Below, in pieces: positions 3,856 to 63,874 of a stretch of 63,874 nt of DNA. The stretch lies in the IMG/VR virus record IMGVR_UViG_3300037510_000075; one strand, written 5' to 3'. The stretch's first letter is position 1. Every line of letters begins with the position of its first letter. This DNA is from a virus. The translations under genes were made by a program, and so were the position numbers. The notes below the pieces were generated by a model. The model had not been told where the DNA came from, made no database searches, and saw nothing but the letters and a program-made list of their open reading frames with translations.

Positions 3856-3911
3856 TAGACCCCTGCAGTAGCTACCCGCTCACTGATCCTAGACCCCTGA
3901 TAGAGCCCCTG
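3856..3911. repeat. iteron-like direct repeats TAGA(G)CCCCTG x3
   Basis: TAGACCCCTG at 3856-3865 and 3890-3899, immediately followed by TAGAGCCCCTG at 3901-3911. CCTCCTTAG is also repeated, at 3983-3991 and 4029-4037. Confidence 0.8.
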
Positions 3912-36921: not shown

Positions 36922-39540
36922 TTAACTGCATGTAGGTTGTCCGGTCACAGGATCGATCACACACACCTGCATTTCATCTTCATCATCTATATACTCTTTA
37001 GAAGGCTTTTCTTGTAGAATACCTTTACGCATACCTGCTGCTCTAAAGGTCGTGCAACCCTTAGCTCCATTATCGTAAGCCATCATATAGATGTTCTGGA
37101 ACCTCTCAAAGTTAACATCTGATCCTACATTGCAGGTCTTAGATACGCTAGAATCTACATATTTCTGAGTGGTCGTCAGAACATTAACGTGCTCTTCAGG
37201 TGATAGCTGATTAGCTGTCTTGCCCGTAATACCCCATGTTCTGTAGCCATAATCTTCTACATCTTCGTATTTGACTCCATCCATAGTCTGTATTGTTCTG
37301 GTGTATGAATAGGTGTAAACAGGCTCGATACCAGACGAGATATTGTCTGCTGCCAATGAGATAGTGCCTGTCGGGGCAATTGAAGTAAGATGCGAATTAC
37401 GGATTCCATATTTAGCTATATTCTCTATGATTTCTTTCGGAAGTGTTTGAATAAACTTGCTGTCTAAATACCTCTTATCGTAAACAGGAAAGGCTCCCTT
37501 TTCCTTGGCTAGCTCTACAGAAGAACTATAACAGAAGTCTCTGAGTATCTTTAAGATAATCTTACTAAACTCAAGAAAATCTGGGCTGCCATATTCATAA
37601 CCAAGATACTCTAGGGTATTGGCGAAGCCTGTGACACCTAAGCCCATACGTCTCTTAGCTTTGCCTTCTTGCTCTTGTTGAGGTAGTGGATAAATACCGA
37701 TATCGATGATATTATCCATCGCTCTAACTACATGCTGGATATCTTGTGAGAATGTTATAAAGTCAAACTCACGATCCTTAATGTATTTAACTAGATTAAA
37801 GGAACCTAGAAGGCAAGCACCGTATGGGGGCAACGGCTGTTCGGCACATTGCCCTGTTAATATACCATTAAATATGGCTGAGTTGCGAAGAGGTTCATTA
37901 AAACAATAAACTTTATCAGCTTTACCAGCTTCTTCGATAGAAGTTATCGTAATAAATCTAGAAGCGTCTCTATCAGGTTTCCTGTATCCAGATAATCTTT
38001 TAGTAGGTAATCCGAGATTATAAGCATGATTAGCTGAAATAGATAGTCTCCAGCAATCTCTCATTTCACTAATAGAACCAGTAACACTTAACGTGTTTAA
38101 CATTAAAGCTACATTGACAAGAAATTCTTTATTCTTCGAAGAAATTTGTAAACAACCATCTTCAGTTAAATAGCCATCACTGTCAGCAAGTCCAGCTAAC
38201 CAATGTAACCTATATTTTAGAGTAAACCTAGTATCAGGTACAAATAATTTAGGTCTTAATTTTCCAGACTTACCATAATATAAATAGACTTTCTTATTTT
38301 CATTTTTACTATCATACTCATTACGAGTTAATGGTGTTTCTAAGAAAGACTCTAATTCGCGCTTTTTATCATATAATCCTATATATTGTCTGCCACGAGA
38401 ATCTTCCCAACCATCTCCAGAAAAGAAACCTTGTGTATATGGCCCAGATAAAAAGTCTATCATAGGCCCCTCCTTCATGTCACCTATCCTAGGCCATTCA
38501 TGTTTTAATAGCTTATCACCGATTTGTAATTCGTGTGCTTCTTTTCTAGAGCCATCACTAAGAATAAATTTGTGGTATTTAGTACAAGTAAGCTTACGAC
38601 CATTAGATGTTGTTATATCTAAGATATCTTGATCGAGTCCTGTCACTCTGGGAATAACTTTAGACCACTCAAAGCCATTCCATACATTCACAACTTCTCC
38701 AACTAAGCTCTCAATCTCTCTATAGCCATGTTCTTTGGTTAGAATTTCTGTACTACCAATAACACATGGGTTTGTTGCAGTGAGTTGCTCACAATACCAG
38801 AGATTATTCCAGTAGTTGATTCTATCGATATAAAGAATACCCGGTTCAGCGTAATCCCATGTATTTCTCATAATGGAATTCCAGAGGGAACGGGCATCTA
38901 CTGTCTTATAAACCTTACCTCTGAACTTAAGATTAAAATCTGTACCGTGTTTAACTGCCTTCATAAAAGCATCTGTAGCAGCAACAGAAATATTGAATCT
39001 GGTTAGCTTGTGCTCATTCTGCTTTGCGTGTACGAACTCTTCAATGTCCGGGTGGTCTACTCGTAAAACTCCCATCTGCGCGCCACGTCTATGCCCGGCA
39101 CTGGCAATTGTTCCACAAAGAGCATCATAAATATCCATGAAGCTAACGGGACCACTAGAATAGCTGTTAAGAGACTTAATAAGAGAGCCGCGAGGCCGAA
39201 GAGTACTAAAATCGTACCCGATACCACCACCCAAACGCATTGTCTGGCCAGCTTCTTGAGCTTTTTCCATAATATCATTAAAGTCATCTGCTATAGCTCC
39301 CGAGACAAAGCAATTCCACGGTGTTACCTTAAGTGGTGATCCTACTGCAGCCTGCACTCTACCAGCAGGCATGAACCTCATACTAGAGAAGATATCTACT
39401 AGAGCATGTCTGTGTTCATCATTATCACTCAGGGCACTAGCTAATCTGGCACAACAAGCTTCAAAGCTTTCACCTTGAAGTCTGTATTTAGTAGCATGAA
39501 TTTCTTTAGAGATAGGTAGAGAAGGTCCAGTATTAGTCAA
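36922..39540 (-). CDS. nrdJ: ribonucleotide reductase (monomeric, class II/NrdJ-like) interrupted by an intein (566-aa extein)
   Basis: Motifs are RFMPAGRVQ, TPWNCFV, and the active-site TNP|C...|CAEQPLPPYGACLLGSFNL split by the intein. The class II assignment is from overall resemblance only. Confidence 0.85.
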   Translation of the reverse strand: MTNTGPSLPISKEIHATKYRLQGESFEACCARLASALSDNDEHRHALVDIFSSMRFMPAGRVQAAVGSPLKVTPWNCFVSGAIADDFNDIMEKAQEAGQTMRLGGGIGYDFSTLRPRGSLIKSLNSYSSGPVSFMDIYDALCGTIASAGHRRGAQMGVLRVDHPDIEEFVHAKQNEHKLTRFNISVAATDAFMKAVKHGTDFNLKFRGKVYKTVDARSLWNSIMRNTWDYAEPGILYIDRINYWNNLWYCEQLTATNPCVIGSTEILTKEHGYREIESLVGEVVNVWNGFEWSKVIPRVTGLDQDILDITTSNGRKLTCTKYHKFILSDGSRKEAHELQIGDKLLKHEWPRIGDMKEGPMIDFLSGPYTQGFFSGDGWEDSRGRQYIGLYDKKRELESFLETPLTRNEYDSKNENKKVYLYYGKSGKLRPKLFVPDTRFTLKYRLHWLAGLADSDGYLTEDGCLQISSKNKEFLVNVALMLNTLSVTGSISEMRDCWRLSISANHAYNLGLPTKRLSGYRKPDRDASRFITITSIEEAGKADKVYCFNEPLRNSAIFNGILTGQCAEQPLPPYGACLLGSFNLVKYIKDREFDFITFSQDIQHVVRAMDNIIDIGIYPLPQQEQEGKAKRRMGLGVTGFANTLEYLGYEYGSPDFLEFSKIILKILRDFCYSSSVELAKEKGAFPVYDKRYLDSKFIQTLPKEIIENIAKYGIRNSHLTSIAPTGTISLAADNISSGIEPVYTYSYTRTIQTMDGVKYEDVEDYGYRTWGITGKTANQLSPEEHVNVLTTTQKYVDSSVSKTCNVGSDVNFERFQNIYMMAYDNGAKGCTTFRAAGMRKGILQEKPSKEYIDDEDEMQVCVIDPVTGQPTCS
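37849..38766 (-). mobile_element. 306-aa intein with LAGLIDADG domain, ending Gly-Gln
   Basis: Starts CVIGSTEILT, with block B TCTKYHKF and LAGLIDADG motifs YTQGFFSGDGW and WLAGLADSDGYL. It ends FNGILTGQ followed by the +1 Cys of the RNR active site. Confidence 0.85.
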
Positions 39541-42644: not shown

Positions 42645-42927
42645 GTGATTCTTGTTTCTTTTGTTTAACTCTTTTAATAGAGAGTTCTCTAATGTCAGTT
42701 ATTACTGCTTTAGGAATTGTTACATGACCTGAGACTAATTCTTGATCGGTTTGTAAATCCATAGATGCAACTAACACAAGTCTATCGGGTCTATCAGAAA
42801 CCAACCAACCCACAGAGATACATTCCATAGATTTATCTTCTACTATATCTTTTAGTGACACCCAAGAGTCGTGAGACCCAGCATCATTCCAAGTAACTTG
42901 TACTAGTTTATAATCTTTAGGATTCAT
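42634..42927 (-). CDS. hypothetical 97-aa protein
   Basis: ORF that overlaps both neighbouring genes. Confidence 0.45.
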   Translation of the reverse strand: MNPKDYKLVQVTWNDAGSHDSWVSLKDIVEDKSMECISVGWLVSDRPDRLVLVASMDLQTDQELVSGHVTIPKAVITDIRELSIKRVKQKKQESLDP

Positions 42928-43300
42928 TAATCCACTCTATCGGTATAAGCCCAACAGCGTAAGGAAAATCATTCCTCTTACACCACCGAATGTTTCTTTC
43001 CAACTCTTTATGAGCACTAGGGGTCTTAGGTTCGCTGAACACCATTCTTACATCGAGATGAGGGTTACTCTTCTTCAGAGACTTCATCTTTCGTTTATCT
43101 TCTACTCTAAAGTAACCCTTAGTCTCTACTATAATCTTCTCTTTGATCACAAAGTCTGGATTGTACTCAGCTTGAATAGAGTAAGGAATAGAGTAAGGTT
43201 CATACTCAAAGTCTACTCCTAACTCATATAGGAGATCGAAGTTAGCTTGTTCTAAGCTATTCCGAGTTTTAACTCTCGGTTTCTTCTTCGACTTCTTCAT
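42917..43300 (-). CDS. T7 endonuclease I-like Holliday junction resolvase
   Basis: 127 aa. The motif YNPDFVIKEKIIVETKGYFRVEDKRKMKSLKKSNPHLDVRMVF parallels the T7 gp3 core (PDF...ETKG). Confidence 0.65.
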   Translation of the reverse strand: MKKSKKKPRVKTRNSLEQANFDLLYELGVDFEYEPYSIPYSIQAEYNPDFVIKEKIIVETKGYFRVEDKRKMKSLKKSNPHLDVRMVFSEPKTPSAHKELERNIRWCKRNDFPYAVGLIPIEWINES

Positions 43301-43579: not shown

Positions 43580-44452
43580 TTATTCACTTTCTTCTTTTGT
43601 TTGAAATTCTTCGTACTTTAATCTAGGCTCTTTAACTAATAGTGTAAAGTATTTAGGGCCTGTACTATATATTCTGGTTAGTAATCCTTGTCCATTATTA
43701 GCATCTCTCCAACAATGGAATTTATACTGACAATAAGAACACCCTGTACTTAATACTCTATTACCACTCTTATCCTTCTTAGAAGGAAGCTTATCTTCAT
43801 AACATCTAGAAGGCTCTGTTTCAGTAACTACTTCAGACTTAACTTTCTGAACGATGCTATTAAAAGTTTGAGGTAAGTTAGGTTCTTTAAACTCTACGAA
43901 CTTAAAATGACCGAGGACTTTATCGATAATTAACCAACCAGCCCTCTGTGCCCCTAGAGCTTCCTTATAGGCCTTTAATTGAAAGACATAGCCAAAAGGA
44001 TCGTTCTCGTAGAGAGAACTGTCTACAAACTTATTGTAAGAGAATGTAGAACAACTCTTAACGTCTACTAACACTCCATCGATGATACAGTCAGTTCGTC
44101 CTTTAATTCCTTCGAACTCAACTTCTTTCTGTAGGCCTTCTACGGTGTGCCCTGCTTGAGTAGCTAGAAAAATAAATAAACTCTCTAGCAGATCGCCATA
44201 CAGAAACTTTACCTTGGCATCTACGGGTAACTCTTCACCTTTAGTTCCATTAAGATAATACCAAAGTTTGCGAAGAGGCCAACCTATATTAGATAGTCTG
44301 AGATAAGGCTTCTTCTCTTCTCCGTATTCCTTAAATCTTTTAGTGAAGAGGTTAGTTAATTCAGAACCCAGATTAGCTGTAAGAACATCATCTAATGAAT
44401 GTCCTTTAAAAAGAGATGCAATATCTTCTTCTAATGTTTCAATCTGTTTCAA
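43580..44452 (-). CDS. PD-(D/E)XK / Cas4-like exonuclease
   Basis: 290 aa with the motif GRTDCIIDGVLVDVKS and a C-terminal Cys cluster CSYCQYKFHCW. Confidence 0.6.
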   Translation of the reverse strand: MKQIETLEEDIASLFKGHSLDDVLTANLGSELTNLFTKRFKEYGEEKKPYLRLSNIGWPLRKLWYYLNGTKGEELPVDAKVKFLYGDLLESLFIFLATQAGHTVEGLQKEVEFEGIKGRTDCIIDGVLVDVKSCSTFSYNKFVDSSLYENDPFGYVFQLKAYKEALGAQRAGWLIIDKVLGHFKFVEFKEPNLPQTFNSIVQKVKSEVVTETEPSRCYEDKLPSKKDKSGNRVLSTGCSYCQYKFHCWRDANNGQGLLTRIYSTGPKYFTLLVKEPRLKYEEFQTKEESE

Positions 44453-45370: not shown

Positions 45371-45399
45371 ATTGTATCAAACTTGAGCAATGGTGTCAA
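45371..45399 (-). promoter_or_regulatory. near-consensus sigma70 promoter (minus strand)
   Basis: TTGACA (complement of 45399-45394), 17-nt spacer, TACAAT (complement of 45376-45371), with a TGA extended -10 element. Confidence 0.7.
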
Positions 45400-46388: not shown

Positions 46389-46589
46389 TTAGAATTCTTC
46401 TTCACGAATTATTACATCTTCCTCTATTTTTGATTCCTTCGAATCTCTCTTATCCCTTAATTCAGTTTCACAACCCCATAAAGGACCACTAAATATTGTT
46501 ACCCATCCAAATAAAAAATGCCATTTTTGTAATTTATGTAAAAAAGTAAATCCTGCTGGTTTAATGATTCTGTATTTAGCCATTGACAT
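46389..46589 (-). CDS. 66-aa membrane protein
   Basis: ORF with a hydrophobic core (WHFLFGWVTIFSGPLW). Its start codons lie inside repeat copy A. Confidence 0.4.
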   Translation of the reverse strand: MSMAKYRIIKPAGFTFLHKLQKWHFLFGWVTIFSGPLWGCETELRDKRDSKESKIEEDVIIREEEF

Positions 46590-46653
46590 TCTCTATTTCA
46601 TCTGTTATAATATCACTGTTATTGGCGCCCGGTAAAGTATACCCTATAGAGGG
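46583..46653 (+). promoter_or_regulatory. copy A of the 71-bp inverted duplication: perfect sigma70 promoter pointing antisense into the DNA polymerase gene
   Basis: TTGACA (46583-46588), 17-nt spacer, TATAAT (46606-46611), with a TGT extended -10 element. It differs at one position from the reverse complement of 63476-63546. Confidence 0.75.
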
Positions 46654-46669
46654 AAGCCAATTCATAGAC

Positions 46670-48553
46670 CTAATGTGTGTCACACCAAGTATCTCCTACC
46701 TTAGATGCACCCGTCAGAGGCACCCTAAACTTTAATTCTTCTGCAGCTTGTGTCATACTTTCTACAGCTAATTCTCCTAGTCGTTGAGCATTCTTTTCTT
46801 CGGTCTCCATCTGCCATTCATCGTGGATATTACCCACAAACCACCATTCAAAGTCTCTCTTTCTGTCTAAGATGATAGCAGCTAACTTCATAACTATACC
46901 ACCTAAACTCTGTATTCTGTAGTTCAGAGCAGCATTCATAGAGTTACATCTGACGTATCCACCATCTATAGTTCTTAACAACCCTTTGTTGAGTTTAAAC
47001 TCCGACTGAACATCCTCGATCAGAGCCCCTAATCCGGGTACGTTCTTGAAGAAAGTCTTAATAACTAACTCACCTTCTTCGGGTGTACCTCTAATAATAC
47101 TACCTAGCTTAGGTGGGTAAGCTCCATATAGCCAAGCATACCAGCTAGTCTTAGCCCCCCATTCTCTGTCTATTTCTCTATTAAATAGTCTAGTTAATTC
47201 TCTAGAGTTCATAGAGTGGATATCATTAGGTTTAGGCTGATTTAGGATAGCCTCCGCCTTCTTATTATTTAAATAGTGTAAAAGCCCTACGGTCTCTAAC
47301 CCACTAGCATCTGCCCCCACCAATTTAAGGCCCTTCTGAGGCTCTACGGACCACAGAGAGCGGCATTCTGCTCCGTAGGCTGCCTTAGTAGGGTGAGGAA
47401 TATTGGCCGTGTTGGGGCTGCTGTGAGTCATACGGCGGGTGCTAGCCCCGCAGGTGAGAACCCTACCGTGGATACGGCTATCTGGTTTTAGATTCTCTAA
47501 CCAAGTCTCTATCATATTAGCTCGGCCATTACAGACGAGCCATTCTGCTATAGCCCCTACCTCTGGTTTCCCAGATAGTTTAGCAAAGGCTAAGAGGGCT
47601 TCTTCATCTACCTTAGGATTACCTTTCTCAGTAAAGGAGGTAGGCTCAAACCCTAGCTTGAGGAGTCTCTCGACTCGTTGGACTGGAGAACCAATATTAA
47701 AATCCACATAGTCCAAGCAACTATAAGTATCGTCATCGTTATCTTGGATTACTGGATAGGTTTCAAAGTGGCGAATATATGACGAATAGTCGCTTCCATC
47801 CTTACGTTTTCGTCTAGTATATCTCCCCACCTCTTTGAGTTCTGGCGGAAAAAGCTTTTGTATCGGGATGGAAAGATCGGACTCCTTTCCCCGCAGGTAG
47901 TCACGTAAGTTCTCAGCTCCGACCCTGTTAAACCAAAAGCCTCTAGCTGTCTGTCTATCGATAATCTCTCTGATGCGGTGCTCAATCTCACAACTTTTTT
48001 CTGAAAAACCTATTTTATACATACGTGAACTAAGAGCCTCATAAACTTTCTCTAACAACTCTACGTCTTGTTCACATCTAATTAACATAGCCTCACTGTA
48101 TTGAGACCAGTCTTCGTGTTCTACTTTTCTGTGATTTAATCTATATCCGTATGCCTCTAGTGAATGAGCACCTTTCCTGTCTGTCTTACTTCTTTTAGCA
48201 TTCTCTACCTTCAATCCCTCTGGAATCTCTAGGTTAGGATTGTAAAGATAACTCAGAACTAAAGTATCGATCTGATTGTCTAATGGAATAGTAAAGCCAG
48301 TAAACTTAGACAATACAGGAAAATCGAAAGACACACCGTTATGAGCAACAAACTGAGAGACAGATAAATTTCTCTCATTAAAAAACTTTCTTAATTCATG
48401 GTAGATATTAGCAGACCCATCATTGATGAATCTCCATATCTGTTGTGTGCCTCTGTTCTTGATGATGCAGCAATGAATCCGAGTAGGATTCAACCCATCG
48501 GTTTCTATATCTAGAAAGTAGCAATTATTATTATCGAGTTGCTTTAAGTACAA
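46670..48553 (-). CDS. family A DNA polymerase with N-terminal 3'-5' exonuclease
   Basis: 627 aa. Exonuclease motifs are FLDIETDGL, HNGVSFDFPVL and CEQDVELL. Polymerase motif A is GADASGLE, motif B is REWGAKTSWYAWLYG and motif C is GNIHDEW. Confidence 0.9.
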   Translation of the reverse strand: MYLKQLDNNNCYFLDIETDGLNPTRIHCCIIKNRGTQQIWRFINDGSANIYHELRKFFNERNLSVSQFVAHNGVSFDFPVLSKFTGFTIPLDNQIDTLVLSYLYNPNLEIPEGLKVENAKRSKTDRKGAHSLEAYGYRLNHRKVEHEDWSQYSEAMLIRCEQDVELLEKVYEALSSRMYKIGFSEKSCEIEHRIREIIDRQTARGFWFNRVGAENLRDYLRGKESDLSIPIQKLFPPELKEVGRYTRRKRKDGSDYSSYIRHFETYPVIQDNDDDTYSCLDYVDFNIGSPVQRVERLLKLGFEPTSFTEKGNPKVDEEALLAFAKLSGKPEVGAIAEWLVCNGRANMIETWLENLKPDSRIHGRVLTCGASTRRMTHSSPNTANIPHPTKAAYGAECRSLWSVEPQKGLKLVGADASGLETVGLLHYLNNKKAEAILNQPKPNDIHSMNSRELTRLFNREIDREWGAKTSWYAWLYGAYPPKLGSIIRGTPEEGELVIKTFFKNVPGLGALIEDVQSEFKLNKGLLRTIDGGYVRCNSMNAALNYRIQSLGGIVMKLAAIILDRKRDFEWWFVGNIHDEWQMETEEKNAQRLGELAVESMTQAAEELKFRVPLTGASKVGDTWCDTH

Positions 48554-49280: not shown

Positions 49281-49469
49281 TTAACACCATAATTTATATT
49301 CCTCCAAATATTTCCACGCAAGATTAATATCAAACTGAATAGTAGTGTGCACAGAATGCCATTTAGGAAATTGTCTTTGAACAGCTAAATACTTTAAAAG
49401 AGATTCTCTAAGCTCTTCTAATTCATTAGAAGGTCCACCTAAATATATTCCTTTGATGTTCAATCCCAA
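49281..49469 (-). CDS. hypothetical 62-aa protein
   Basis: ORF that overlaps the primase-helicase stop. Confidence 0.4.
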   Translation of the reverse strand: MGLNIKGIYLGGPSNELEELRESLLKYLAVQRQFPKWHSVHTTIQFDINLAWKYLEEYKLWC

Positions 49470-51130
49470 TCCTCATCTATCGATATCTTCTTAGACTTAT
49501 CATTGTTCAGGTACTCTTGTAAACTCTCTTGTGGTAACTCCATTAACCTTCCGATCTCAGCATCATACTTCAGCAAACAAGCAGGTCCTGTCTTACCAGA
49601 GAATCTATTCTTCTCTACGGTTACTTTAGTTAGGTTTCTTACTTCATCATCATCAGACTTCAAATCTCTGTATAGCTTAATAACTATATTAGAGAGTTGT
49701 TCGATACCCATAGTACCACGGATTTCACCCTTACGGTTCTGATGCACTACAGCTATTACGGCTATGTTAAGTTCCATACACAGAGTCTTTAGCTTTGTGC
49801 TGATCTCATCTAGCTGCTTTCTTTCATCACCACTCTGATCTGATACAATAATAGATAGATGATCTAATACGATGTACTTACACCCTAGATTATGCATGTA
49901 CCTTACAAAGTCTAAGACCTTAGTAATATCATTAGAACCGAAGTGATCCCAGATAACTATCTTCTCATTACCGTAGACAGCATCAAAATATTTACGAAGC
50001 TCGTCATCAGGCACCTTATCTCTTACATCAGGTAAGTGTAAAGGTTTATTAGCTGCTAATGACATTAGGCCTAGAAGAGTCTCTTTATTAGAGTCTTCTA
50101 GCATCATTAAACCAATACCCCTACTATCATCCTTATTAGCTAGTATAGTTTGAAGAATATTAAAAACTATCTCCCTGACCGTAGAAGTCTTACCTACTCC
50201 GGGGAAAGCTGTAATAGTTACAAATTCAGATAGTCTGATTCCGTAGGTGAGTCTATTAAGACCATCCCAAGGATAAGGAACAGAAGTAGTATTATCATCT
50301 TTACGGATAACCTCATCCCACATATCTTTGGCTAATTTAAGCCCTAGCGGGGACCATACAGGGGCTTTCCACCATTCCTTGACAAACTCCTTATCCCAAC
50401 CCTTCATCAGGTAATCGTTAGCATCTTTGGCTTTACGAAGAGTTAGGACTCTAACTTTACCTAACTCAAATCTAGCGGCTACCTTTTGTGCTGCCTCTTG
50501 TCCGGGGAAATAAGAAGAGCCATCCGGTCTGAAGTGTTCTTTATCATTATCAAAACAGATAACGATAGTCTCGAAAGAGTTTAAGTATTGGAAGTTATCT
50601 TGAATCTCTTTGAGAGCTGAACTCACAGACTTAATAGCCACACACGGATATTCTTTACCCGTCATTTCGTAAGCAGCTAGAGCATCAAATGCACCCTCTA
50701 GAATGGTGATCTGCTTCGCAGAGCCTGCAGGAAATAACTGTTGTCCGAAAAGACAACTCTTATTGATATCCCCTTGGATCATAAAACCCTTAGTAGCTTC
50801 TACCTTGAATTGGTTAGCTATATGGGTCTTACCATCTCTAGAGTAATAAGGAAACACAAACTCATTGTTGTCGTTAACCCAAACTCCATAGAACTCTGCG
50901 GTCTGCTTAGATATATTTCTCTCTGAGATAACCCTGCACTTATCTTTGTTCACAGGAGTTATTGCAGAGACAGGCTTTAAATCAAAATCTTCTTTTTGCT
51001 CTATCAATTTCTTAGTATCTCTATTCTTGTAGATGTGCTTATTGCACGAATAACAATGAGTGTATTCTCCATAATCTGTTACAGCGTCTGAACTTCCACA
51101 AAACTCACACGATAGTTTATAAATAGGCAT
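49460..51130 (-). CDS. bifunctional primase-helicase (T7 gp4-like)
   Basis: 556 aa. It has the zinc finger CEFCGSS...CYSC, the TOPRIM motif ILEGAFDALAAY, and Walker A AFPGVGKTS followed by a DnaB-type helicase body. Confidence 0.88.
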   Translation of the reverse strand: MPIYKLSCEFCGSSDAVTDYGEYTHCYSCNKHIYKNRDTKKLIEQKEDFDLKPVSAITPVNKDKCRVISERNISKQTAEFYGVWVNDNNEFVFPYYSRDGKTHIANQFKVEATKGFMIQGDINKSCLFGQQLFPAGSAKQITILEGAFDALAAYEMTGKEYPCVAIKSVSSALKEIQDNFQYLNSFETIVICFDNDKEHFRPDGSSYFPGQEAAQKVAARFELGKVRVLTLRKAKDANDYLMKGWDKEFVKEWWKAPVWSPLGLKLAKDMWDEVIRKDDNTTSVPYPWDGLNRLTYGIRLSEFVTITAFPGVGKTSTVREIVFNILQTILANKDDSRGIGLMMLEDSNKETLLGLMSLAANKPLHLPDVRDKVPDDELRKYFDAVYGNEKIVIWDHFGSNDITKVLDFVRYMHNLGCKYIVLDHLSIIVSDQSGDERKQLDEISTKLKTLCMELNIAVIAVVHQNRKGEIRGTMGIEQLSNIVIKLYRDLKSDDDEVRNLTKVTVEKNRFSGKTGPACLLKYDAEIGRLMELPQESLQEYLNNDKSKKISIDEDWD

Positions 51131-52948: not shown

Positions 52949-53734
52949 CTATACATCTACAAACTCCTGAGACAGTGCTTCAACGTACTTTTCTAAGGTT
53001 TGACCTTGTAGTCCGGGGGCAGTATTGATCTCTAGAACATAAGCTTTTTCCCTGTTTTTATTGTAGATAACATCTACAGCACCAAAGTCTAATCCGCTAT
53101 TAAGAAAAGCTTTATTAGCTTGATCTAGAACATCTTGTGGAGGTTCACCAGAATTACGTACATAGATAAATCCATTCTTGTGGGCTCTTATACGCCACTC
53201 AGTCGGTGTCTGCTGAGGGTCTCTAATCTTACGTTGAACGTCCATAATGCTTAGAGAAGAACTTATGTGGACTCTCCACTCACTGTCTTTAGGGACATAT
53301 TTAGTATATAAAGGTGCGTCTGGTATATCATCTAGAGAATTATCTACGTTATTAACGAGTATTATACCATCTCCAGAGTGGCCTGTCAACTTAGTTCTAC
53401 ATACTAAAGTATCTCCTTGGTTAAACCAAACTAAAGCTAAGTCTTTTTCAGTTGTCCAAGGAACTAATCTACATGCACTATCATCAAAAGATGACTGATG
53501 CTTAAAGAATTTAATCTTATTCGTACAAGTCCCCACTAGTTCCGGTTGATTGACAATCCACTTAGCAGCAGAGAATTCAGAAGGAACCTCTGAACAACCC
53601 CAGTTAATAATATACTTATCTTGTGGATTGAATTTTGAGTTCTCTCTTTTAATTCTCTTGATACCTAAGGCTTCGGATAAGGCTTTAGCAGACTGACTCT
53701 TACTGTTGTAGGAGTATAGAAATACATTATTCAT
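52949..53734 (-). CDS. ATP-grasp ligase (RimK-like)
   Basis: 261 aa with the motifs TGHSGDGIILV and KAYVLEINTAPGLQG. Confidence 0.65.
   Translation of the reverse strand: MNNVFLYSYNSKSQSAKALSEALGIKRIKRENSKFNPQDKYIINWGCSEVPSEFSAAKWIVNQPELVGTCTNKIKFFKHQSSFDDSACRLVPWTTEKDLALVWFNQGDTLVCRTKLTGHSGDGIILVNNVDNSLDDIPDAPLYTKYVPKDSEWRVHISSSLSIMDVQRKIRDPQQTPTEWRIRAHKNGFIYVRNSGEPPQDVLDQANKAFLNSGLDFGAVDVIYNKNREKAYVLEINTAPGLQGQTLEKYVEALSQEFVDV
53361..53389 (-). promoter_or_regulatory. perfect sigma70 promoter embedded in the ATP-grasp coding sequence
   Basis: TTGACA (complement of 53389-53384), 17-nt spacer, TATAAT (complement of 53366-53361), with a TGG extended -10 element. Confidence 0.7.
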
Positions 53735-53745
53735 TTAGGTTCCTT

Positions 53746-54018
53746 TTAGATAGATTTAACTCTAATAACTTTTATGTGGGGGATTGCTAGTGGTTGATCA
53801 TACCAAATATAGTAAAGTCTGCAGTTTGGGGGTAATGAACAATCAAATGTTATTTGAGTTGGTCCGTGAGTTAATGTTATAACGGAATTGTTTGCAGACT
53901 CATTAATCACCGATTGAACAACACAAGGACGTCCTTGCATCCAAATAAGATCACCCTCTTCCGATTCAAAGTATTCAGATTGTGGTGTAGAATATCCATC
54001 CCAATAATGACTTTGCAA
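53746..54018 (-). CDS. hypothetical 90-aa protein (operon member)
   Basis: ORF with an 11-nt gap to the ATP-grasp gene. Confidence 0.45.
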   Translation of the reverse strand: MQSHYWDGYSTPQSEYFESEEGDLIWMQGRPCVVQSVINESANNSVITLTHGPTQITFDCSLPPNCRLYYIWYDQPLAIPHIKVIRVKSI

Positions 54019-54038
54019 GTCACTTAAACCAAGTTCTT

Positions 54039-55121
54039 CTACACTACTTGTACTATTGGTTTCTTCCTTTTGCGGACTACTCTCTTTTTTTTTGGTGCTG
54101 TATCAGACCAATCAATTTTATAAGCGACATCTCTCATCATTCTCAATCCATCCCATAGTTTATTTGACAGAGAAGGAATAGGACTGAGTAAGACATTTAG
54201 TTGATGGTCATCAAATATCTTAGAGAAGAAAAGCAATGGACCTAACTCACTGAACTCTTCTACGATATCGATAGGGTTTTTATAACCTTCTGCCTTTACT
54301 CGAATATTATTTAGTAGGTTTACCCATAGCATAATCAACTCAGGATCAATAGTACCCTTCAAGGCTCTGAACTCTAGAGAACCAAACTTGGGGATGGCAC
54401 TAATATTGCAGGCACTATAACGCATATCCTCTTTCCAATCAGAGAGAGTTTTATGTTCTAGTGCAAATTCTAACATACGAATGATATATTCAGAGTCTTT
54501 AGCTCGTAAACAAAATAAATTACCCGCTCTTTCGGGTGAGGCCCAATCAATCAGAACTTCTTCGAAGATCATATAGAGAAGAATAAAACAATAGAGTTGT
54601 CTAATAGTATACTGCTGGCAATTAAAGTGTACGTGCACAGAGCATCTATTAGACATGATTACTTCAGACTTATTATCTTGAAGCTTATAATACAGAAACT
54701 CTAAAGCTTTTCTGGTTTCTTCTATAGAAAGAGGTTGTCTCAAAACATACTCTACTGCAGGGTGTCCTTCTACTTCTCTTAGAGAACCATCTTGGTGACA
54801 ACTCCAATATTTAAATGTGCTTCCTAATAGATTCTTACCTTCTACCTCTACTTCTAATCCTATTAATCCTTCTTTAAGTCCATTTCTAAATGACACTATT
54901 TGTGCTAAAGGTGCATTATGGAAGAGTTCCATATATTTCTTTTCCTTTTTAGATGATTTTATTCCGGTTACATAACCACCATCACTAGTGGCGCCTATAT
55001 AAACCCATTGAGAAGGTGTGGAAGGAGGTATAGGATTAAGGATTGGTGGTAAAACACTATTAAGAATATTAGCTTGTACTATCTCTGTGAGATTTACATT
55101 ATAACTTAGTGGATCAGGCAA
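54039..55121 (-). CDS. amidoligase-like (glutamine-synthetase-fold carboxylate-amine ligase) protein
   Basis: 360 aa with the segments GLIGLEVEVEG, CHQDGSLREVEGHPAVEYVL and SVHVHFNC, which resemble the amidoligase family from memory. Confidence 0.5.
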   Translation of the reverse strand: MPDPLSYNVNLTEIVQANILNSVLPPILNPIPPSTPSQWVYIGATSDGGYVTGIKSSKKEKKYMELFHNAPLAQIVSFRNGLKEGLIGLEVEVEGKNLLGSTFKYWSCHQDGSLREVEGHPAVEYVLRQPLSIEETRKALEFLYYKLQDNKSEVIMSNRCSVHVHFNCQQYTIRQLYCFILLYMIFEEVLIDWASPERAGNLFCLRAKDSEYIIRMLEFALEHKTLSDWKEDMRYSACNISAIPKFGSLEFRALKGTIDPELIMLWVNLLNNIRVKAEGYKNPIDIVEEFSELGPLLFFSKIFDDHQLNVLLSPIPSLSNKLWDGLRMMRDVAYKIDWSDTAPKKKRVVRKRKKPIVQVV

Positions 55122-55746
55122 TTTTAAACCCCTGCATTTCGGTTAATTCTTCAGCTAAAAATTTCTTGTGCGGTGCGAGCTTCAAGAGCTTTCCATCTTC
55201 GGTATACCCTACTCTCTCATTTCGATAGATAAGATTAGGTGGGTTAACTTTATCAAATGCTAACATACATTTCCTGCTGATAGCCACACTTCTAACTTCA
55301 TCCGGTGAATTGAGTAAGTCTTTAATAGCAGTGGAAGCAGGTGTATATTTATTTTTTATGGTAGAGTTCAATGATTCCTGCTCTAAGATATGATCCCAAG
55401 AGTAACTATGTCTATCATTAAAGAATGAGAAGATACGAACAACCCTAGAATCAACACCTTGACGTGTAGTTCTGACTGGTGCTCTGCTCACAAACAAAGC
55501 TTCTCTAATTCCACGAGAACTATAATAATCCACATAACCTAGCTTAGAGCTAATAGATTTAAAATCTAATAGAGGGTCATCGATATCTACCCATTGTCTC
55601 TTGTTAGAACCAAAAGGAATCTTGCAGAACTCTAGAGTTACTTTACCATCTGATCCACCTACATTGCTTATGTAAACAGGATCACCATCGTAGAGAATTG
55701 TTGTACCACTAATCTTTTGTTCTGCTTCAGCTCTAGTAGTATACAT
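55114..55746 (-). CDS. hypothetical 210-aa protein (operon member)
   Basis: ORF that overlaps the downstream start by 8 nt. Confidence 0.45.
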   Translation of the reverse strand: MYTTRAEAEQKISGTTILYDGDPVYISNVGGSDGKVTLEFCKIPFGSNKRQWVDIDDPLLDFKSISSKLGYVDYYSSRGIREALFVSRAPVRTTRQGVDSRVVRIFSFFNDRHSYSWDHILEQESLNSTIKNKYTPASTAIKDLLNSPDEVRSVAISRKCMLAFDKVNPPNLIYRNERVGYTEDGKLLKLAPHKKFLAEELTEMQGFKIA

Positions 55747-55762
55747 CTTTTATTCCTATTGT

Positions 55763-56614
55763 CTATGCTGCTGTTTGTTGCATCCATTTAACAAACTCCT
55801 CTGGACGCCCTCCGAATTCTCCACAAATTTCTTTACCTTCTGTAGTATTATACCAATCTACAATACCTTCATCAATAACTCTTTGGGCAAAATTACCGTA
55901 CTTATCTTCCATCGAGTATGATTTAGTAGACAGATCATTAACTGCAGACGCAGTTCTGTTGAATACAAAAGCTTGTAGCTTCCTATTCTTCAGCCACTTA
56001 TTCGAGAGAGTTCTGTATTCGCACCCATAAGATTTATATCGCAATGCCCCTGCTTTACCATATAATGAACGTCTGCGTGGATCAGGGTCCCAGAATAAAG
56101 ACCATATACCCAAGTAATAGTCTAATTGCTTAGCTACTAAATGACAATCCTCTCTATGAGACTCACATCCTGTATTTGCATCATCTCTCCAACCTACGTG
56201 AATATGACCTGAAGCTGTTCTAAACGGCATGTCTGCATCTGGAGTTACATTAACTTGTCCAGTCCAAGCATTATAATCTGGATTACACCCTAGCTCTTTT
56301 ACTTCTACGGGTAGAGACTTGAAATAATCTAGATCAAATGAAGAGACAGGCTCCATAACTAATTCATAGTCAGGTACAAGACTCTTCAGTGTATTAATAA
56401 CATTAGTAATGTTATCTACAAATTGTGGGTAATCACCAGCCGGATCAATATTAAACTCAGCGGCGGTACCATCTACTTGAATAGCCCCGTTGGCCACCTT
56501 AAAAGGTTTTAGTTTAGTGCCCGGTAAGAGTGTATGAGCACTCACCATCTTACCTGTGATCTTATGCTTGAGGAATAATTCAGGATCAGCACCAACAAGA
56601 ATCTTACTAACCAT
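55763..56614 (-). CDS. phiEco32-type COOH-NH2 ligase-like protein
   Basis: 283 aa. The N-terminus ILVGADPELFLKH and the segments ASGHIHVGW and GCEYRTLSN match my recollection of this phage ligase family. Confidence 0.55.
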   Translation of the reverse strand: MVSKILVGADPELFLKHKITGKMVSAHTLLPGTKLKPFKVANGAIQVDGTAAEFNIDPAGDYPQFVDNITNVINTLKSLVPDYELVMEPVSSFDLDYFKSLPVEVKELGCNPDYNAWTGQVNVTPDADMPFRTASGHIHVGWRDDANTGCESHREDCHLVAKQLDYYLGIWSLFWDPDPRRRSLYGKAGALRYKSYGCEYRTLSNKWLKNRKLQAFVFNRTASAVNDLSTKSYSMEDKYGNFAQRVIDEGIVDWYNTTEGKEICGEFGGRPEEFVKWMQQTAA

Positions 56615-56783
56615 CGCATTGCTCCATCGTTCTAAGAAATTCTAAGATAAGTTCTGCATCATCTCTGTAAGAATCTTTAAACCACTCTACTTCTTTATCC
56701 CACATAAATTGATTGTAATCACAATGAATTTCATCGTGTAGAAATTCAGCTAACTTTTCTACTACTGAGTCTATTTTTGTCAT
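56607..56783 (-). CDS. 58-aa micro-protein (operon member)
   Basis: The ATG at 56783 forms an ATGA overlap with the class-II GATase stop. The product is MTKIDSVVEKLAEFLHDEIHCDYNQFMWDKE... Confidence 0.4.
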   Translation of the reverse strand: MTKIDSVVEKLAEFLHDEIHCDYNQFMWDKEVEWFKDSYRDDAELILEFLRTMEQCDG

Positions 56784-58288
56784 GCAGCTTTCTTTCCTAA
56801 CTTCTCTATTTGATCTGGTAATTGTGGGGTTAATGCACACCACTCACAAAAGAACTCATGCTGAGGTGTGACGAATCTAACTTCATTACCCCATTCTGGT
56901 GTTCTTCCGCACTGGATACAACCGCTAGACATTAGCTCTTCAAAGTATTGTTTATCCAGTAGCTTTCCATTATAGCCTTTATAGTAAACACGCTTCTTAT
57001 TCTTCTTACCTTTATGTTTGAAATGATGTCTAGCATTTATATCTAAAGGTTTAAAAGGTAAGTCAGCCGGAGGAATAGCTACATCCTTCCATAAGTCCCA
57101 CTTATTATCTATCGAGTTGTAAGCAAGATAACTCCACTTACCAGTAGTAGAATCACGCCATACTTTGATATTAGCATTTTCATATATCTTAAATAACGGA
57201 GGTTCTTCTTGAAGACACAATCCAGCTTTGACTGCTTCTTCTAAAGCTCTCTTACGTATAATATCAAAAGCAGTAAGAGCCTTATTTTGAGGCACGTGAT
57301 TATTTATCTTACTAAGATTATCACTGACTCTCTTTAAAATATCCACATTGGAAGTAATATTAGTAGTTTTCTTTGGGATATAACCTACATATAATCCACC
57401 ATATTCCATTTCATCCGTGTCTTTATTTACTGGCTCATATACTGTAATATCCTTCCCAATATTCGCTTTCTGAAAGTTCGTATCTTCCTTTTTTTTATTG
57501 TCACCTTTAGTCCAATAAGAGTTACTATGATAATAGACTGTTGTTTTTCTACCTACTAGTTTAGTTCTGGTAGGTGGTTTAATGATCTCATCGGCCTTAA
57601 GAGGAATATCCCAAGTGTGTAATGTATCTACAGGTAAGTCTATAAACTTATCATCTACAGGCTTAAGGCCTTCTCTGTGAATAGCTGCAGCCAACATTCC
57701 ATATTCAGAAGACCAAGCAATAGTCTTGCCATCATTTACATAACAATACACTAAAGTTCTATGCTCATTACGTATTAGATTTAAAGTGTTCGTATTGTTG
57801 TCGAACCAAGTTAAAGCATAAGCTTCTGTGTCATCTATACGAGAGATAGTATCTTCGATACCGCGGACTTGAATAGTGTTAAAGATAGCTTCAGAGTCAG
57901 TAGAGAAACTAGAACCAGATTCTAATCTATTCTTATTTTGGAAATCTAATGTACCATTGTGAGCACCCATAATATTAGGGAACAGAAATGGGTGAGCATT
58001 TTTTCTGTTGTTCTCGCCAACAGTCTTGCTTCTATTATGACCTATGTAACATAGATTGACACCAGCAAAAACCTGATTATATCTCTTAGTATCTTCTAAG
58101 AAATAGAATGGTCCTGTTTCTTTAGCAATCTGCATCTTAAGATTGCCATCTTCATCGTGATTACTACGGGAAACAGAACCTACTCCAGTCGCATCCGTAC
58201 CTCTTAGTTGATTGAAGATGAGTAGTGTCTTAACTACTTTCTCTTCCTTTAGGGATACTGAACCGGCAACACCGCTTAATCCACACAT
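56780..58288 (-). CDS. class II (Ntn) glutamine amidotransferase-like protein with C-terminal Cys4 ribbon
   Basis: 502 aa. It starts MCGLSGVAG, giving a catalytic Cys after Met removal. The C-terminus is CIQCGRT...FFCEWC. Confidence 0.65.
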   Translation of the reverse strand: MCGLSGVAGSVSLKEEKVVKTLLIFNQLRGTDATGVGSVSRSNHDEDGNLKMQIAKETGPFYFLEDTKRYNQVFAGVNLCYIGHNRSKTVGENNRKNAHPFLFPNIMGAHNGTLDFQNKNRLESGSSFSTDSEAIFNTIQVRGIEDTISRIDDTEAYALTWFDNNTNTLNLIRNEHRTLVYCYVNDGKTIAWSSEYGMLAAAIHREGLKPVDDKFIDLPVDTLHTWDIPLKADEIIKPPTRTKLVGRKTTVYYHSNSYWTKGDNKKKEDTNFQKANIGKDITVYEPVNKDTDEMEYGGLYVGYIPKKTTNITSNVDILKRVSDNLSKINNHVPQNKALTAFDIIRKRALEEAVKAGLCLQEEPPLFKIYENANIKVWRDSTTGKWSYLAYNSIDNKWDLWKDVAIPPADLPFKPLDINARHHFKHKGKKNKKRVYYKGYNGKLLDKQYFEELMSSGCIQCGRTPEWGNEVRFVTPQHEFFCEWCALTPQLPDQIEKLGKKAA

Positions 58289-58291
58289 CAG

Positions 58292-58471
58292 TTATTTACT
58301 TTCCTTTAGAAGTTTAGGTGAATCTAAACTAGTTAATACAACAGTATAAGAAGAATAGAGAGAAATGATATCAGCTTCTTTATCTGTTAAATACAATACA
58401 GGTCCTTTTGAAATTGGATTACCTTTTGAAGTGTGTCCAATAAACTGATAGGGCTTTCTCTTTTCTCTCAT
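58292..58471 (-). CDS. 59-aa micro-protein (operon member)
   Basis: The ATG at 58471 lies 1 nt after the upstream stop. The stop lies 3 nt before the class-II GATase ATG. It is just below the ORF-track threshold. Confidence 0.4.
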   Translation of the reverse strand: MREKRKPYQFIGHTSKGNPISKGPVLYLTDKEADIISLYSSYTVVLTSLDSPKLLKESK

Positions 58472-58472
58472 G

Positions 58473-59135
58473 TTACTTACTCCAATAGTATTTATCCATT
58501 AGCTCATGGAAATACTTGGTTGTGGGAGGATGACCGAACTCAGGATGAAACTGTACTAGTAAGCTATCCGTCTTAGGATACCACAGAGCTTCTACATCTC
58601 TGTCTGCTTCTTCTATATGATCGCCTACTCTGGTGTGTGGTCTGTTCCACAGATCGTGTTGAGCTTCTTTACGAGTACACTCATATGCCCAACACAATAA
58701 CTCAGCCTCTGAAGTAGGGCGCATCATCTGATGGTGAACAGAGTTTATGACCACCCAACTACCAGAAACACAATCAAAGGCTCTGTGGTTTCTGCCATCA
58801 TGGTTATCTACATCTTGCCAGAGCTTACCACCGTTGACTACTACGTTGAGAAGTTGAGCACCTCTGCAGATACCTACCAGAAACTTAGAATGGGCTACCG
58901 CATCCTTTACAGCTTCTATATCTGAAATATCTCTGTCAGAGAAATAGGTGCTATTTAAGGGTGTCTCATCATATAGTCTTGGATTGATATCTTCTCCACC
59001 AGTCCATACGACTATATCTGCATCCTTGAGCTTAGGTGCAAGCTTGTATCGACCTGTGCTCAGGAACACTTCTGAGGTAATACCATTGTAAGGTTTACCC
59101 ACTACAAAGATATTAGCTCTACTGAATAATGCCAT
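58473..59135 (-). CDS. class I glutamine amidotransferase / peptidase C26 (gamma-glutamyl hydrolase-like)
   Basis: 220 aa with the nucleophile elbow GICRGAQLLNVV and the His/Glu motif VQFHPEF. Confidence 0.72.
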   Translation of the reverse strand: MALFSRANIFVVGKPYNGITSEVFLSTGRYKLAPKLKDADIVVWTGGEDINPRLYDETPLNSTYFSDRDISDIEAVKDAVAHSKFLVGICRGAQLLNVVVNGGKLWQDVDNHDGRNHRAFDCVSGSWVVINSVHHQMMRPTSEAELLCWAYECTRKEAQHDLWNRPHTRVGDHIEEADRDVEALWYPKTDSLLVQFHPEFGHPPTTKYFHELMDKYYWSK

Positions 59136-62701: not shown

Positions 62702-63050
62702 TATCTGGTATCTCTAGTTCTACTTCTTGAACCCCTAAGATTTTACGGCCTTGTTCGACAAAGACTTTGAGTATGGATTCTAAGTTAGAATTATTCTCTT
62801 TTTTATCTATGATATGATTACATATTACAGTACCATTACGGTATATAAAATGTATGCTCCAGAATTTCTGTGTCTTAGGTATCTTAGAGTAGTTGTCTAA
62901 CCATCCAATAAATCCATTAGTGTCAGGTTTATCTACTTCTTTAAGCCAACCCCAATTACCATTAATATGTATAATCTTATATTTATAGAGGCCATTAAAA
63001 GGTTTATGCCTGCAAAGATCACCAACTTTTAACTGTATTTTAATAGTCAT
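62694..63050 (-). CDS. hypothetical 118-aa early protein
   Basis: ORF 62694..63110. The ATG at 63050 forms an ATGA overlap with the deaminase stop. Confidence 0.45.
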   Translation of the reverse strand: MTIKIQLKVGDLCRHKPFNGLYKYKIIHINGNWGWLKEVDKPDTNGFIGWLDNYSKIPKTQKFWSIHFIYRNGTVICNHIIDKKENNSNLESILKVFVEQGRKILGVQEVELEIPDND

Positions 63051-63448
63051 GTTGTCCACTCCATTTCCTTGATGTTGAAAGATGCTATGGCTTTTAAACA
63101 ACCAGAGCAAGGCTTCGCTATACTAGGAGTCCCATCATTAAGAACCCTAGCCACACTGAGTCTGTATTTAGATAGGTCAGTTATATCTTTGTAACGGGCA
63201 CCAGCTTGAGAGGCTTCCCATCTAATAGCTTTGATGATAGCATCTAACTCTGCGTGTATGTGGATAGACTCTGAATTGCTACCGAACTTCTTCTGTAATG
63301 GGTGAGTCTTATAAGAGTTAAACCCTGTGTGTTGAACCCAGCTATTATCTAGAACACAAGCGAACCTACTAATATTATTCCTGCCTAATGGTTTAATAGG
63401 ATTAGTCTTAGCTAACTCTATAGCTCTTAGTAGATTAGTAGAATACAT
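63047..63448 (-). CDS. cytidine/deoxycytidylate deaminase-fold zinc protein (first gene after the early promoter)
   Basis: 133 aa with the CDA signature HAELDAI...KPCSGCLKAI. Confidence 0.65.
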   Translation of the reverse strand: MYSTNLLRAIELAKTNPIKPLGRNNISRFACVLDNSWVQHTGFNSYKTHPLQKKFGSNSESIHIHAELDAIIKAIRWEASQAGARYKDITDLSKYRLSVARVLNDGTPSIAKPCSGCLKAIASFNIKEMEWTT

Positions 63449-63475
63449 AGGGTTGGATATCCACTATTGGGTCTA

Positions 63476-63546
63476 CCCTCTATAGGGTATACTTTACCGG
63501 GCGCCAATAACAGTGATATTATAACAGATGAAATAAAGAATGTCAA
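63476..63546 (-). promoter_or_regulatory. copy B of the 71-bp inverted duplication: perfect sigma70 early promoter plus leader
   Basis: TTGACA (complement of 63546-63541, overlapping the pentapeptide gene stop), 17-nt spacer, TATAAT (complement of 63523-63518), with a TGT extended -10 element. The near-palindrome TACCCTCTATAGGGTA lies at about 63475-63490. The leader can form a CACTGTTATTGG/CCAATAGTG stem. Confidence 0.8.
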
Positions 63547-63874
63547 GACTTATTAATCTTTCTGATCTTTATCATCTTCTCTAGGTACTCTAAAATTGCT
63601 AGAGTTTTCTTAGCTTTATCTGTATTAGGGTACGTAGTTTCGATGTGCGTTCTATACTCTTTAAACGATAAATATCTACAACCTGCTCTAACCTTTAGAC
63701 CATCATAATCAAATCTGAATCCATCTGAACGAGTAGGCCCTACTATGTAGCAAGTGTTCCGCAGGTCAGCCCCACGCAGGTCAGCCTTACTCAGGTTAGC
63801 CCCACTCAGGTTAGCCCCACTCAGGTTAGCCCTACTCAGGTTAGCCCTACTCAGGTTAGCCCCACGCAGGTCAG
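63543..63874 (-). CDS. pentapeptide-repeat protein, C-terminal part (continuation of the 225->1 gene)
   Basis: Reading the complement gives ...[109 protein letters not shown], with the stop at 63545-63543. Confidence 0.8.
   Translation of the reverse strand, partial: DLRGANLSRANLSRANLSGANLSGANLSKADLRGADLRNTCYIVGPTRSDGFRFDYDGLKVRAGCRYLSFKEYRTHIETTYPNTDKAKKTLAILEYLEKMIKIRKINKS
63810..63874. repeat. 65-nt terminal overlap identical to nt 1-65 (circular closure / assembly redundancy)
   Basis: The unit-by-unit comparison of the 15-bp repeats aligns in only one register. Removing the overlap restores the reading frame of the junction gene. Confidence 0.9.

Follow-up and report, generated by a model that had tools for sequence, protein, structure and literature searches.

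A conserved promoter cassette facing the replication operon in a family of uncultured phages

Introduction

A phage genome in the IMG/VR collection (record IMGVR_UViG_3300037510_000075) carries a perfect consensus promoter for bacterial housekeeping RNA polymerase just beyond the stop codon of its DNA polymerase gene, polA. The promoter points back into that gene from the opposite strand, which raises the question of what it might be for. Throughout this work, "the window" denotes the whole stretch of DNA analysed, 63,874 nucleotides (nt) in length; the promoter in question is termed copy A, and its nearly identical inverted counterpart elsewhere in the window is termed copy B. Antisense or head-on promoters recur in phage transcriptomes, yet evidence that selection maintains them has rarely been obtained. 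In the present case, a comparison of sequences is enough to reveal a backward-facing, non-coding promoter that a deeply diverged family of uncultured phages has retained along with the first ~35 bases of its transcript. Our tentative proposal, to which we give slightly less than an even chance, is that copy A is a conserved promoter cassette that is used by the host RNA polymerase to fire head-on into the replication operon, yielding a non-coding antisense RNA and transcriptional interference.

Results

Copies A and B form the two arms of an inverted repeat, and their promoter elements and the gene faced by copy A are located as follows.

46583-46656, plus strand: copy A, with -35 hexamer TTGACA (46583-46588), TG (46603-46604), and -10 hexamer TATAAT (46606-46611), matching 12 of 12 consensus positions
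From about G46618, plus strand: predicted transcript of copy A, with conserved core CCCGGTAAAG (46628-46637) and CTATAGAGGG (46644-46653)
63473-63546, minus strand: copy B, with -35 hexamer 63546-63541, -10 hexamer 63523-63518, predicted start at about 63511, and core 63501-63492, matching 12 of 12 consensus positions
46670-48553, minus strand: polA, family A DNA polymerase gene (Pfam DNA_pol_A, 2.6e-31, plus RNase_H_2)

A repeat finder aligns the arms over 74 nt with 72 identities (97%) and places them 16,816 nt apart, which bears out the report in a preliminary description of this DNA that the copies bracket a 16.8-kilobase (kb) segment as inverted repeats. Each arm contains TTGACA and TATAAT separated by 17 nt, with TG at -15/-14 (an extended -10 element, TGn), and the sigma70 promoter of this type that had been described earlier is a perfect match in both. 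Over the 71 nt to which the repeat was originally assigned, 70 positions agree, as stated at the time; the one mismatch falls at spacer position 11, where copy A has C and copy B has T. By base-by-base comparison, similarity ends three nucleotides after GAGGG, and the flanks read …GTATTTAGCCA on the outer side of copy A and TAGACCCAATAGTGG… on the inner side of copy B.

Exact promoters of this kind (12/12, 17-nt spacer) occur four times in the window, at +4403, +46583, -53389, and -63546. Dinucleotide-preserving shuffles give an expectation of 0.07 ± 0.26, and none of 100 shuffles reached four; the chance figure of 0.008 offered previously is, for one strand, of the same order as this estimate. 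The promoter at +4403 heads the plus-strand structural block and copy B precedes genes, both of which are positions expected of real promoters. Contig L081 (JGI 3300037473, 3.8 kb) is identical to the window at every base over the 3′ end of polA, copy A, and the next gene, with orientation unchanged, and copy A is therefore not an assembly artefact.

The TAG stop codon of polA lies 13 nt past the end of the repeat and 16 nt past position 46653, at which the preliminary description had ended it; the closeness of promoter and stop codon stands, the spacing given earlier having been 17 nt. No credible plus-strand open reading frame (ORF) follows copy A, as each of the three frames meets a stop codon after at most some 40 codons, and no start codon lies near a ribosome-binding-like site. 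The coordinates and these stop codons confirm a promoter directed antisense into the 3′ end of polA with no ORF to express, as had been proposed. The gene whose 3′ end is thus faced encodes a protein with a 3′-5′ exonuclease-like amino terminus in addition to the DNA_pol_A domain. The plus strand contains no terminator-like site from 46.6 kb until 50740 (about 4 kb), and the antisense RNA predicted to arise from copy A is C-rich, with a C/G ratio of approximately 1.5-1.6.

Relatives of the window phage were defined as metagenomic contigs with polA homologues 54-62% identical to that of the window and the same gene order. In all seven assessable relatives, which together with the window make eight genomes, a reverse-oriented, near-consensus promoter lies zero to three genes downstream of polA, within a short intergenic gap and on the strand opposite to all surrounding genes. 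These antisense copies emerged from a generic promoter scan rather than from a motif-seeded search. They are listed by contig, with the start of the -35 hexamer, the consensus match, and the number of genes between polA and the promoter.

L111: -16821; 11/12; no gene between, directly after the polA stop codon
L104: -13060; 12/12; one gene
L105: -4043; 11/12; one gene
L106: -12723; 11/12; two genes
L085: -12345; 11/12; two genes
L082: -13123; 12/12; two genes
L001: -7991; 10/12; three genes

Because an equivalent reverse promoter occupies the same place in each of these relatives, the promoter of copy A is very probably functional. The lack of an obvious expression product would be in keeping with a functionless by-product, either a chance match to the consensus or a neutral duplication of the early promoter. 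Such an origin is contradicted by the chance expectation of 0.07 per genome and by the maintenance of position, orientation, and sequence in seven relatives in which polA is only 54-62% identical, and we regard its probability as next to negligible. As to the presence of the duplication in related phages, on which the preliminary description had laid weight, the reverse-oriented copy is found in 7/7, and three showed no second copy in the 4-7 kb ahead of the amidotransferase gene.

Conservation is not confined to the promoter hexamers. In the window and the seven relatives, the first ~35 transcribed bases are homologous and share the core CCGGTAAAG, and TGn is present in 11 of 11 aligned cassettes. 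A sequence model (R1) scores 36-56 bits for the cassettes from which it was built and 26.7 bits for the L111 cassette, which was absent from it, as against 12-16 bits for ordinary perfect promoters; in 0.62 megabases of other phage loci (79 distant polA relatives plus L107, L109, and L110), nothing exceeds 15.5 bits. A second model (R2), built with the window left out, recovers only copy A (33.8 bits, E = 1.5e-9) and copy B (33.5 bits, with E likewise about 1e-9) in the window, and does not recover the other two perfect promoters there. The L104 cassette matches that of the window at 41 of 47 positions from the -35 hexamer to +17, despite 60% identity between the polA proteins, which argues for selection beyond the hexamers. 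When the 91-nt cassette was compared with cultured phages, only sub-significant matches were obtained, confined to the promoter part, and further pattern scans of IMG/VR returned nothing new.

The genes flanking the cassette are non-homologous between genomes, indicating that the conserved unit is the cassette itself together with its place in the operon. The small sense-strand ORFs beside it are likewise non-homologous, except those of L105 and L085. In every relative, a sense-oriented promoter matching 11 of 12 positions lies 150-800 nt beyond the reverse cassette; the corresponding element in the window is 1.2 kb beyond copy A.

45371-45399, minus strand: next sense promoter, TTGACA-17-TACAAT with TGn

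Two relatives carry a transfer RNA (tRNA) gene beside the reverse cassette. A tRNA Thr-CGT gene in L082 (13128-13202, plus strand) starts 5 nt beyond the -35 hexamer of the reverse cassette on the sense strand, and a tRNA Lys-TTT gene in L085 (12603-12675, plus strand) is situated about 260 nt beyond the cassette, behind its own sense promoter (+12541).

Since the cassette stands so close to polA in the window, its transcript might be an antisense RNA aimed at the 3′ end or untranslated region (UTR) of polA. In this scheme, put forward in the preliminary description, the copy-B leader would pair with the polA 3′ UTR or with copy-A RNA and create a substrate for RNase III. The complementarity is real by construction (70/71), the repeat of copy A ends 13 nt from the polA stop codon, and L111 exhibits the same direct juxtaposition. 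Set against this, polA is faced only in the window and L111; in six of the eight genomes the promoter faces a different gene, encoding a Fic-like protein, a YAcAr-like protein, a 48-amino-acid (aa) protein, or another, so that the notion of a polA-specific design is not supported. Given a start near G46618, the part of the transcript common to copies A and B amounts to about 36-39 nt, and not the ~42 nt claimed earlier; its leader has no significant fold, and no terminator is present to give a discrete RNA. Furthermore, the 4-7 kb that precede the amidotransferase gene in three relatives show no second copy, and a mechanism requiring two copies therefore cannot be the conserved function. The RNase III proposal is likewise unsupported, and we consider a targeted antisense RNA very unlikely.

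The second copy merits attention in its own right. Copy B exactly fills the gap that separates a pentapeptide-repeat gene from a deaminase-like gene and points the same way as the minus-strand block, and the TGA stop codon of the former gene (63545-63543) falls within its -35 hexamer. The leader of the 133-aa gene behind it measures about 63 nt, of which the initial ~38 nt are shared sequence.

63047-63448, minus strand: 133-aa gene, weakly similar to deoxycytidine monophosphate/cytidine deaminases, first gene 3′ of copy B
63543-63874, minus strand: 3′ part of a pentapeptide-repeat gene, continuing at window positions 1 to ~230

Sense-oriented copies with the same transcript start were found only as copy B of the window, in L108, and in the L086 family. 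The L108 copy (+2741) stands ahead of a 113-aa gene and occupies another place in the operon. Overlapping genes, and not a promoter gap, lie ahead of the deaminase homologue in L107 and L108. Upstream of the amidotransferase gene in L109, L110, and L111, the 4-7 kb present before the contigs end yielded no second copy. The window copies agree with each other at 97% of positions, cassettes orthologous to them in other genomes are far more diverged (the closest being L104, with 41/47), and three relatives are without an upstream second copy; we therefore think that copy B was probably copied recently from copy A, or homogenised with it, within this lineage. This reverses the direction of copying implied by the preliminary description, from the early promoter to copy A, as the antisense copy is the conserved one and the position of copy B is not conserved. 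On the corrected view, what makes this genome unusual is that it has a sense copy rather than that it has an antisense one.

The L086 family comprises contigs of an unrelated estuarine phage. At 4740-4830 of L086, two perfect promoters stand back to back, one of them with the CCCGGTAAAG transcript start; this cassette is back-to-back with the promoter of the terminase operon and faces approximately 600 nt of AT-rich non-coding DNA. A glutamine riboswitch (3808-3863, minus strand, 50.7 bits) occurs in the terminase-side operon of the same contig.

Near-identical inverted arms of 74 nt with inward-facing promoters could also constitute a recombination substrate, selected to invert the 16.8-kb early/replication segment, which would then be transcribed in either orientation. 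The phage does encode recombination nucleases.

43580-44452: PD-(D/E)XK nuclease
42917-43300: endonuclease I

An inversion of this kind may well happen, and it would be transcriptionally neutral for the segment. As the selected purpose of the repeat we hold it to be highly improbable: relatives keep the reverse cassette without a partner, the only other contig covering a junction (L081) has the same orientation, 74 base pairs (bp) is short for efficient homologous exchange, and no invertase or recombinase domain was detected among 29 early-block ORFs scanned with Pfam, a scan outside of which some ORFs shorter than 100 aa fall.

The transcribed part of the cassette conforms to the consensus GTTA..GGCnCCGGTAAAG..TATAC..CTATAG, over ~35 nt of initial transcribed sequence. 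GTTA is found at the predicted start in most cassettes, and the TATAC…CTATAG tail in many. A core resembling CCG(G/A)(T/G)(A/G)AAG is present in all (CCCGGTAAAG in the window), with GGTAAA at a nearly fixed distance of 16-19 nt from the -10 hexamer, and conservation ends about 40 nt after the transcript start. There is no further occurrence of the motif in the window outside the two copies. Because its orientation follows the promoter and not the operon, the motif is expected to act with the promoter, either at the DNA level or as the 5′ end of an RNA, rather than as an element of a long sense messenger RNA (mRNA).

No RNA structure was detected in this region. Ten single-sequence folds gave z-scores between -1.5 and +1.8, none of them significant; RNAalifold predicted no base pairs from 11 sequences; and a long fold of the L082 transcript gave z = +0.2. 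Searches against Rfam at the gathering threshold, covering the window and eight loci, returned only tRNAs and one glutamine riboswitch elsewhere, and around copy A there was no match even at E <= 10. One contribution of the conserved bases may lie in initiation itself, as the GC-rich stretch from +7 to +15 could possibly make the early RNA:DNA hybrid more stable and so help the polymerase to leave a consensus promoter that binds it too tightly.

In four low-GC metagenomic contigs (L089 116-166, L093 3942-4010, L094 1167-1230, and L099 189-250), a perfect hairpin of 10 bp, CCCGGTAAAG-tttt-CTTTACCGGG, comes immediately after a perfect promoter and has a T-rich tract behind it, such that a tiny terminated transcript is predicted. 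The context of this promoter plus CGCCCGGTAAAG hairpin is different, and we judged it to be unrelated or coincidental.

The nearly fixed spacing of core and -10 hexamer suggests another arrangement, namely a bidirectional promoter exploiting the symmetry of the -10 element. The core would then represent the -35 hexamer (TTTACC, on the other strand) of a weaker sense promoter that shares the same -10, and the cassette would form a stop-and-restart boundary at which sense transcription is restarted for the small downstream gene, or for the tRNA in L082.

46607-46636, minus strand: candidate weak promoter, TTTACC (46636-46631), 18 nt, TATTAT (46612-46607), TGn, matching 9 of 12 positions

The same arrangement was flagged in L082, where the tRNA-Thr gene lies about 20 nt from the predicted sense start. 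TAnnnTA geometry (TATAATA in the window) is found in eight of 11 cassettes, every one of the 11 has its core 16-19 nt from the shared -10, and this geometry matches that of widespread bidirectional promoters (bioRxiv 10.1101/2020.01.31.928960). The opposite-strand scores of the cassettes nevertheless range from 6 to 9 of 12 (mean ~8.1), barely higher than the 5 to 9 (mean ~6.9) of 21 control promoters. TTTACC matches the consensus at only four of six positions, and the hexamer of the cassettes never has the key G at position 3. A bidirectional function would also leave unexplained the near-consensus upkeep of the strong arm, and the core is conserved equally in the sense-oriented copies (copy B, L108, and L086). 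A second, sense-directed promoter within the cassette thus seems to us quite unlikely.

The remaining evidence concerns the genomic setting. The window represents a complete or near-complete phage genome (63.9 kb, 39.6% GC); a pentapeptide-repeat gene is split by its ends, from which we conclude that it is a circularly permuted whole genome. Its structural block occupies the plus strand from approximately 4.4 to 36 kb and encodes terminase, T7-like portal, major capsid, and tail proteins, and minus-strand genes extend from 63.4 kb down to 36.9 kb. Among the products of the latter are a deaminase-like protein, a phiEco32-like amidotransferase/amidoligase cluster, an RNA/DNA-ligase-like protein, a primase-helicase, and the family A DNA polymerase, as well as a metallophosphatase, the PD-(D/E)XK nuclease, endonuclease I, a 5′-3′ exonuclease, and ribonucleotide reductase. 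Neither a phage-encoded RNA polymerase nor lysogeny genes were recognised among the genes of the window. The phages that carry the cassette form a podovirus-like family with genomes of ~60 kb and a replication module of the T7 type, and the cassette stands at a boundary before the next sense-strand promoter. Deposited phages provide no DNA match to the polA region, the nearest having polA and portal proteins each at most 36% identical.

49460-51130, minus strand: primase-helicase
46389-46589, minus strand: 66-aa ORF, with ATG codons at 46589 and 46583 that overlap or abut the -35 hexamer of copy A

The 66-aa ORF, which comes next after polA on the minus strand, is called as a gene in contig L081, and unrelated small ORFs occupy the equivalent place in relatives.

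Association with replication genes raises the prospect that the cassette is a transcription-primed or transcription-activated replication origin, at which a strong host promoter would open the duplex or supply a primer. The GC-rich transcript start would serve as a hybrid-forming or RNA-to-DNA switch region, and the window phage would possess two such sites. In phage T7, the primary origin consists of the promoter pair phi1.1A/B followed by an AT-rich region. Consistent with an origin, the replication module is T7-like (primase-helicase, PolA, ligase-like protein, endonuclease I, and 5′-3′ exonuclease), the cassette is always beside it and drives no ORF, conservation stops ~40 nt after the start, and the cassette of the unrelated L086 family faces ~600 nt of non-coding, AT-rich sequence. 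Beyond copy A, however, lies polA coding sequence of about 40% GC rather than an AT-rich unwinding element. In five genomes, the surroundings of the cassette are free of iterons and local repeats. Cumulative GC skew runs with the direction of transcription and does not switch at 46.6 kb, and both copy B and the L108 copy directly precede genes, as ordinary promoters do. On balance, we regard an origin as unlikely. An extended version is that the cassette is the origin for this whole family of phages, which have a T7-type replisome and no RNA polymerase of their own. Host polymerase would lay down a primer or R-loop at a fixed sequence, and the second, convergent origin-promoter of the window would double as an early promoter. 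This version strikes us as slightly more doubtful.

Several further features of these genomes were recorded. The perfect promoter at -53389 (53361-53389, minus strand; TTGACA-17-TATAAT with TGn) is embedded in frame within a 261-aa ORF (52949-53734), in which it encodes LTGHSGDGII. Its hexamers, including a rare ATA codon, are kept in L001 (+130), L085 (+4281), L107 (+10074), L108 (+13743), and L111 (+10884), with a variable spacer, and this pattern suggests an intragenic promoter under selection, lying ahead of the primase-helicase and polA genes. Two minus-strand pentapeptide-repeat genes with 15-nt periodic repeats (63543-63874 joined to 1-~230, and 991-1554) flank three tRNA genes, all on the minus strand, at 247-342, 362-448, and 916-992 (Ile-TAT, Leu-TAA, and Arg-TCT); the Ile-TAT tRNA is unusually long, at 96 nt. 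A cluster encoding GATase_6, a phiEco32-type COOH-NH2 ligase, Amidoligase_2, and Peptidase_C26 (53746-59135, minus strand) lies upstream of the replication genes in all relatives and may have a role in peptide or nucleotide modification. The ribonucleotide reductase ORF (36922-39540, minus strand) encodes 872 aa, compared with ~570 aa in several relatives, and its PHROG matches fall in two stretches. The gene may hold an intein or other insertion; LAGLIDADG or Hint signals are carried by relatives L104 and L082.

Discussion

We propose that copy A acts by transcribing against the replication operon. Head-on transcription is the most economical interpretation of a conserved promoter that has no gene to express and is directed at the replication operon from a unit boundary. 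Host polymerase containing its housekeeping sigma factor would initiate at copy A and proceed head-on into the early/replication operon, and antisense transcription would yield an untranslated, C-rich RNA. Promoter occupancy and polymerase collisions at the boundary could then delimit or damp read-through and temper the expression of polA-proximal genes, with the downstream genes being re-initiated from their own promoter. We infer both that the cassette fires and that interference or the antisense RNA is its selected effect.

A number of considerations weigh against this interpretation. Firing, transcript length, and the effect on polA are all predicted from sequence. Simple interference does not account for the conservation of the ~35-nt transcript start, and the sense copies in L108 and the L086 family demonstrate that the cassette is not intrinsically an antisense device. 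Promoters were scored against the housekeeping-sigma (sigma70-type) consensus. The relatives are metagenomic contigs, and one further relative (L084/L110), whose contig ends 1 kb after polA, was left out of the count of seven. Finally, the motif itself served as the seed for part of the motif search; the L086 and L108 loci came to light by different routes.

The cassette is apparently an undescribed non-coding control element. It provides a defined 75-bp sequence with which roles as an insulator, an early-gene regulator, or an origin primer can be tested in lytic phages.

Several known systems resemble it in part. In the convergent promoter pairs pR/pL of coliphage 186 and PR/PRE of lambda, promoters of unequal strength are separated by tens to hundreds of bp and operate in lysis/lysogeny switches. 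As in the window, host-type promoters face each other, so that elongating polymerases meet bound or oncoming ones; the window promoters, in contrast, are identical and 16.8 kb apart, no lysogeny genes were recognised in the phage, and most relatives have only the reverse member. Lambda OOP is a discrete 77-nt RNA that is transcribed from Po, ends at its own terminator, and has a fixed target, being cis-antisense to the 3′ end of cII. There too, a host-polymerase promoter lies just past a stop codon in a regulatory/replication region and fires backwards to produce an RNA overlapping the 3′ end of a gene. Copy A differs in that no terminator is predicted for ~4 kb, the gene faced varies between relatives, and the conserved part of the element is intergenic rather than gene-overlapping. 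The T7 primary origin shares with the cassette a promoter beside a gp4/gp5-type replisome module and a transcript that need not encode anything, whereas the window element is of the host-polymerase type, is oriented opposite to the genes, and lacks an AT-rich stretch beyond it. With invertible segments of the Gin/Cin/Hin type, the window has in common the flanking inverted repeats (74-nt arms), and a recombinase was not found in the ORFs scanned.

Described bidirectional promoters exhibit -10 symmetry and starts 18 bp apart (bioRxiv 10.1101/2020.01.31.928960). The cassette is similar in its shared TAnnnTA -10 and in the -35-like hexamer at 16-19 nt on the other strand, and differs in that its candidate reverse arm is weak and indistinguishable from control promoters. 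For antisense transcripts more generally, one study showed that antisense RNA shields mRNA from RNase E while a cyanophage infects its host (PMC3113571).

The P001 promoter of phiKMV-like phages such as LUZ19 is a conserved non-coding antisense promoter that has been proposed to restrain transcription into other gene classes (PMC10914365). It resembles the cassette in that a family of virulent podophages has kept both its sequence and its position, in that it is directed against all coding sequences, and in that its product is a non-coding antisense transcript. P001 is read by the single-subunit RNA polymerase of the phage and is located in the early region, whereas the window element has the consensus of the host housekeeping sigma factor and stands beside polA. 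To the features of P001, the window element adds a conserved ~35-nt transcript start and an inverted twin.

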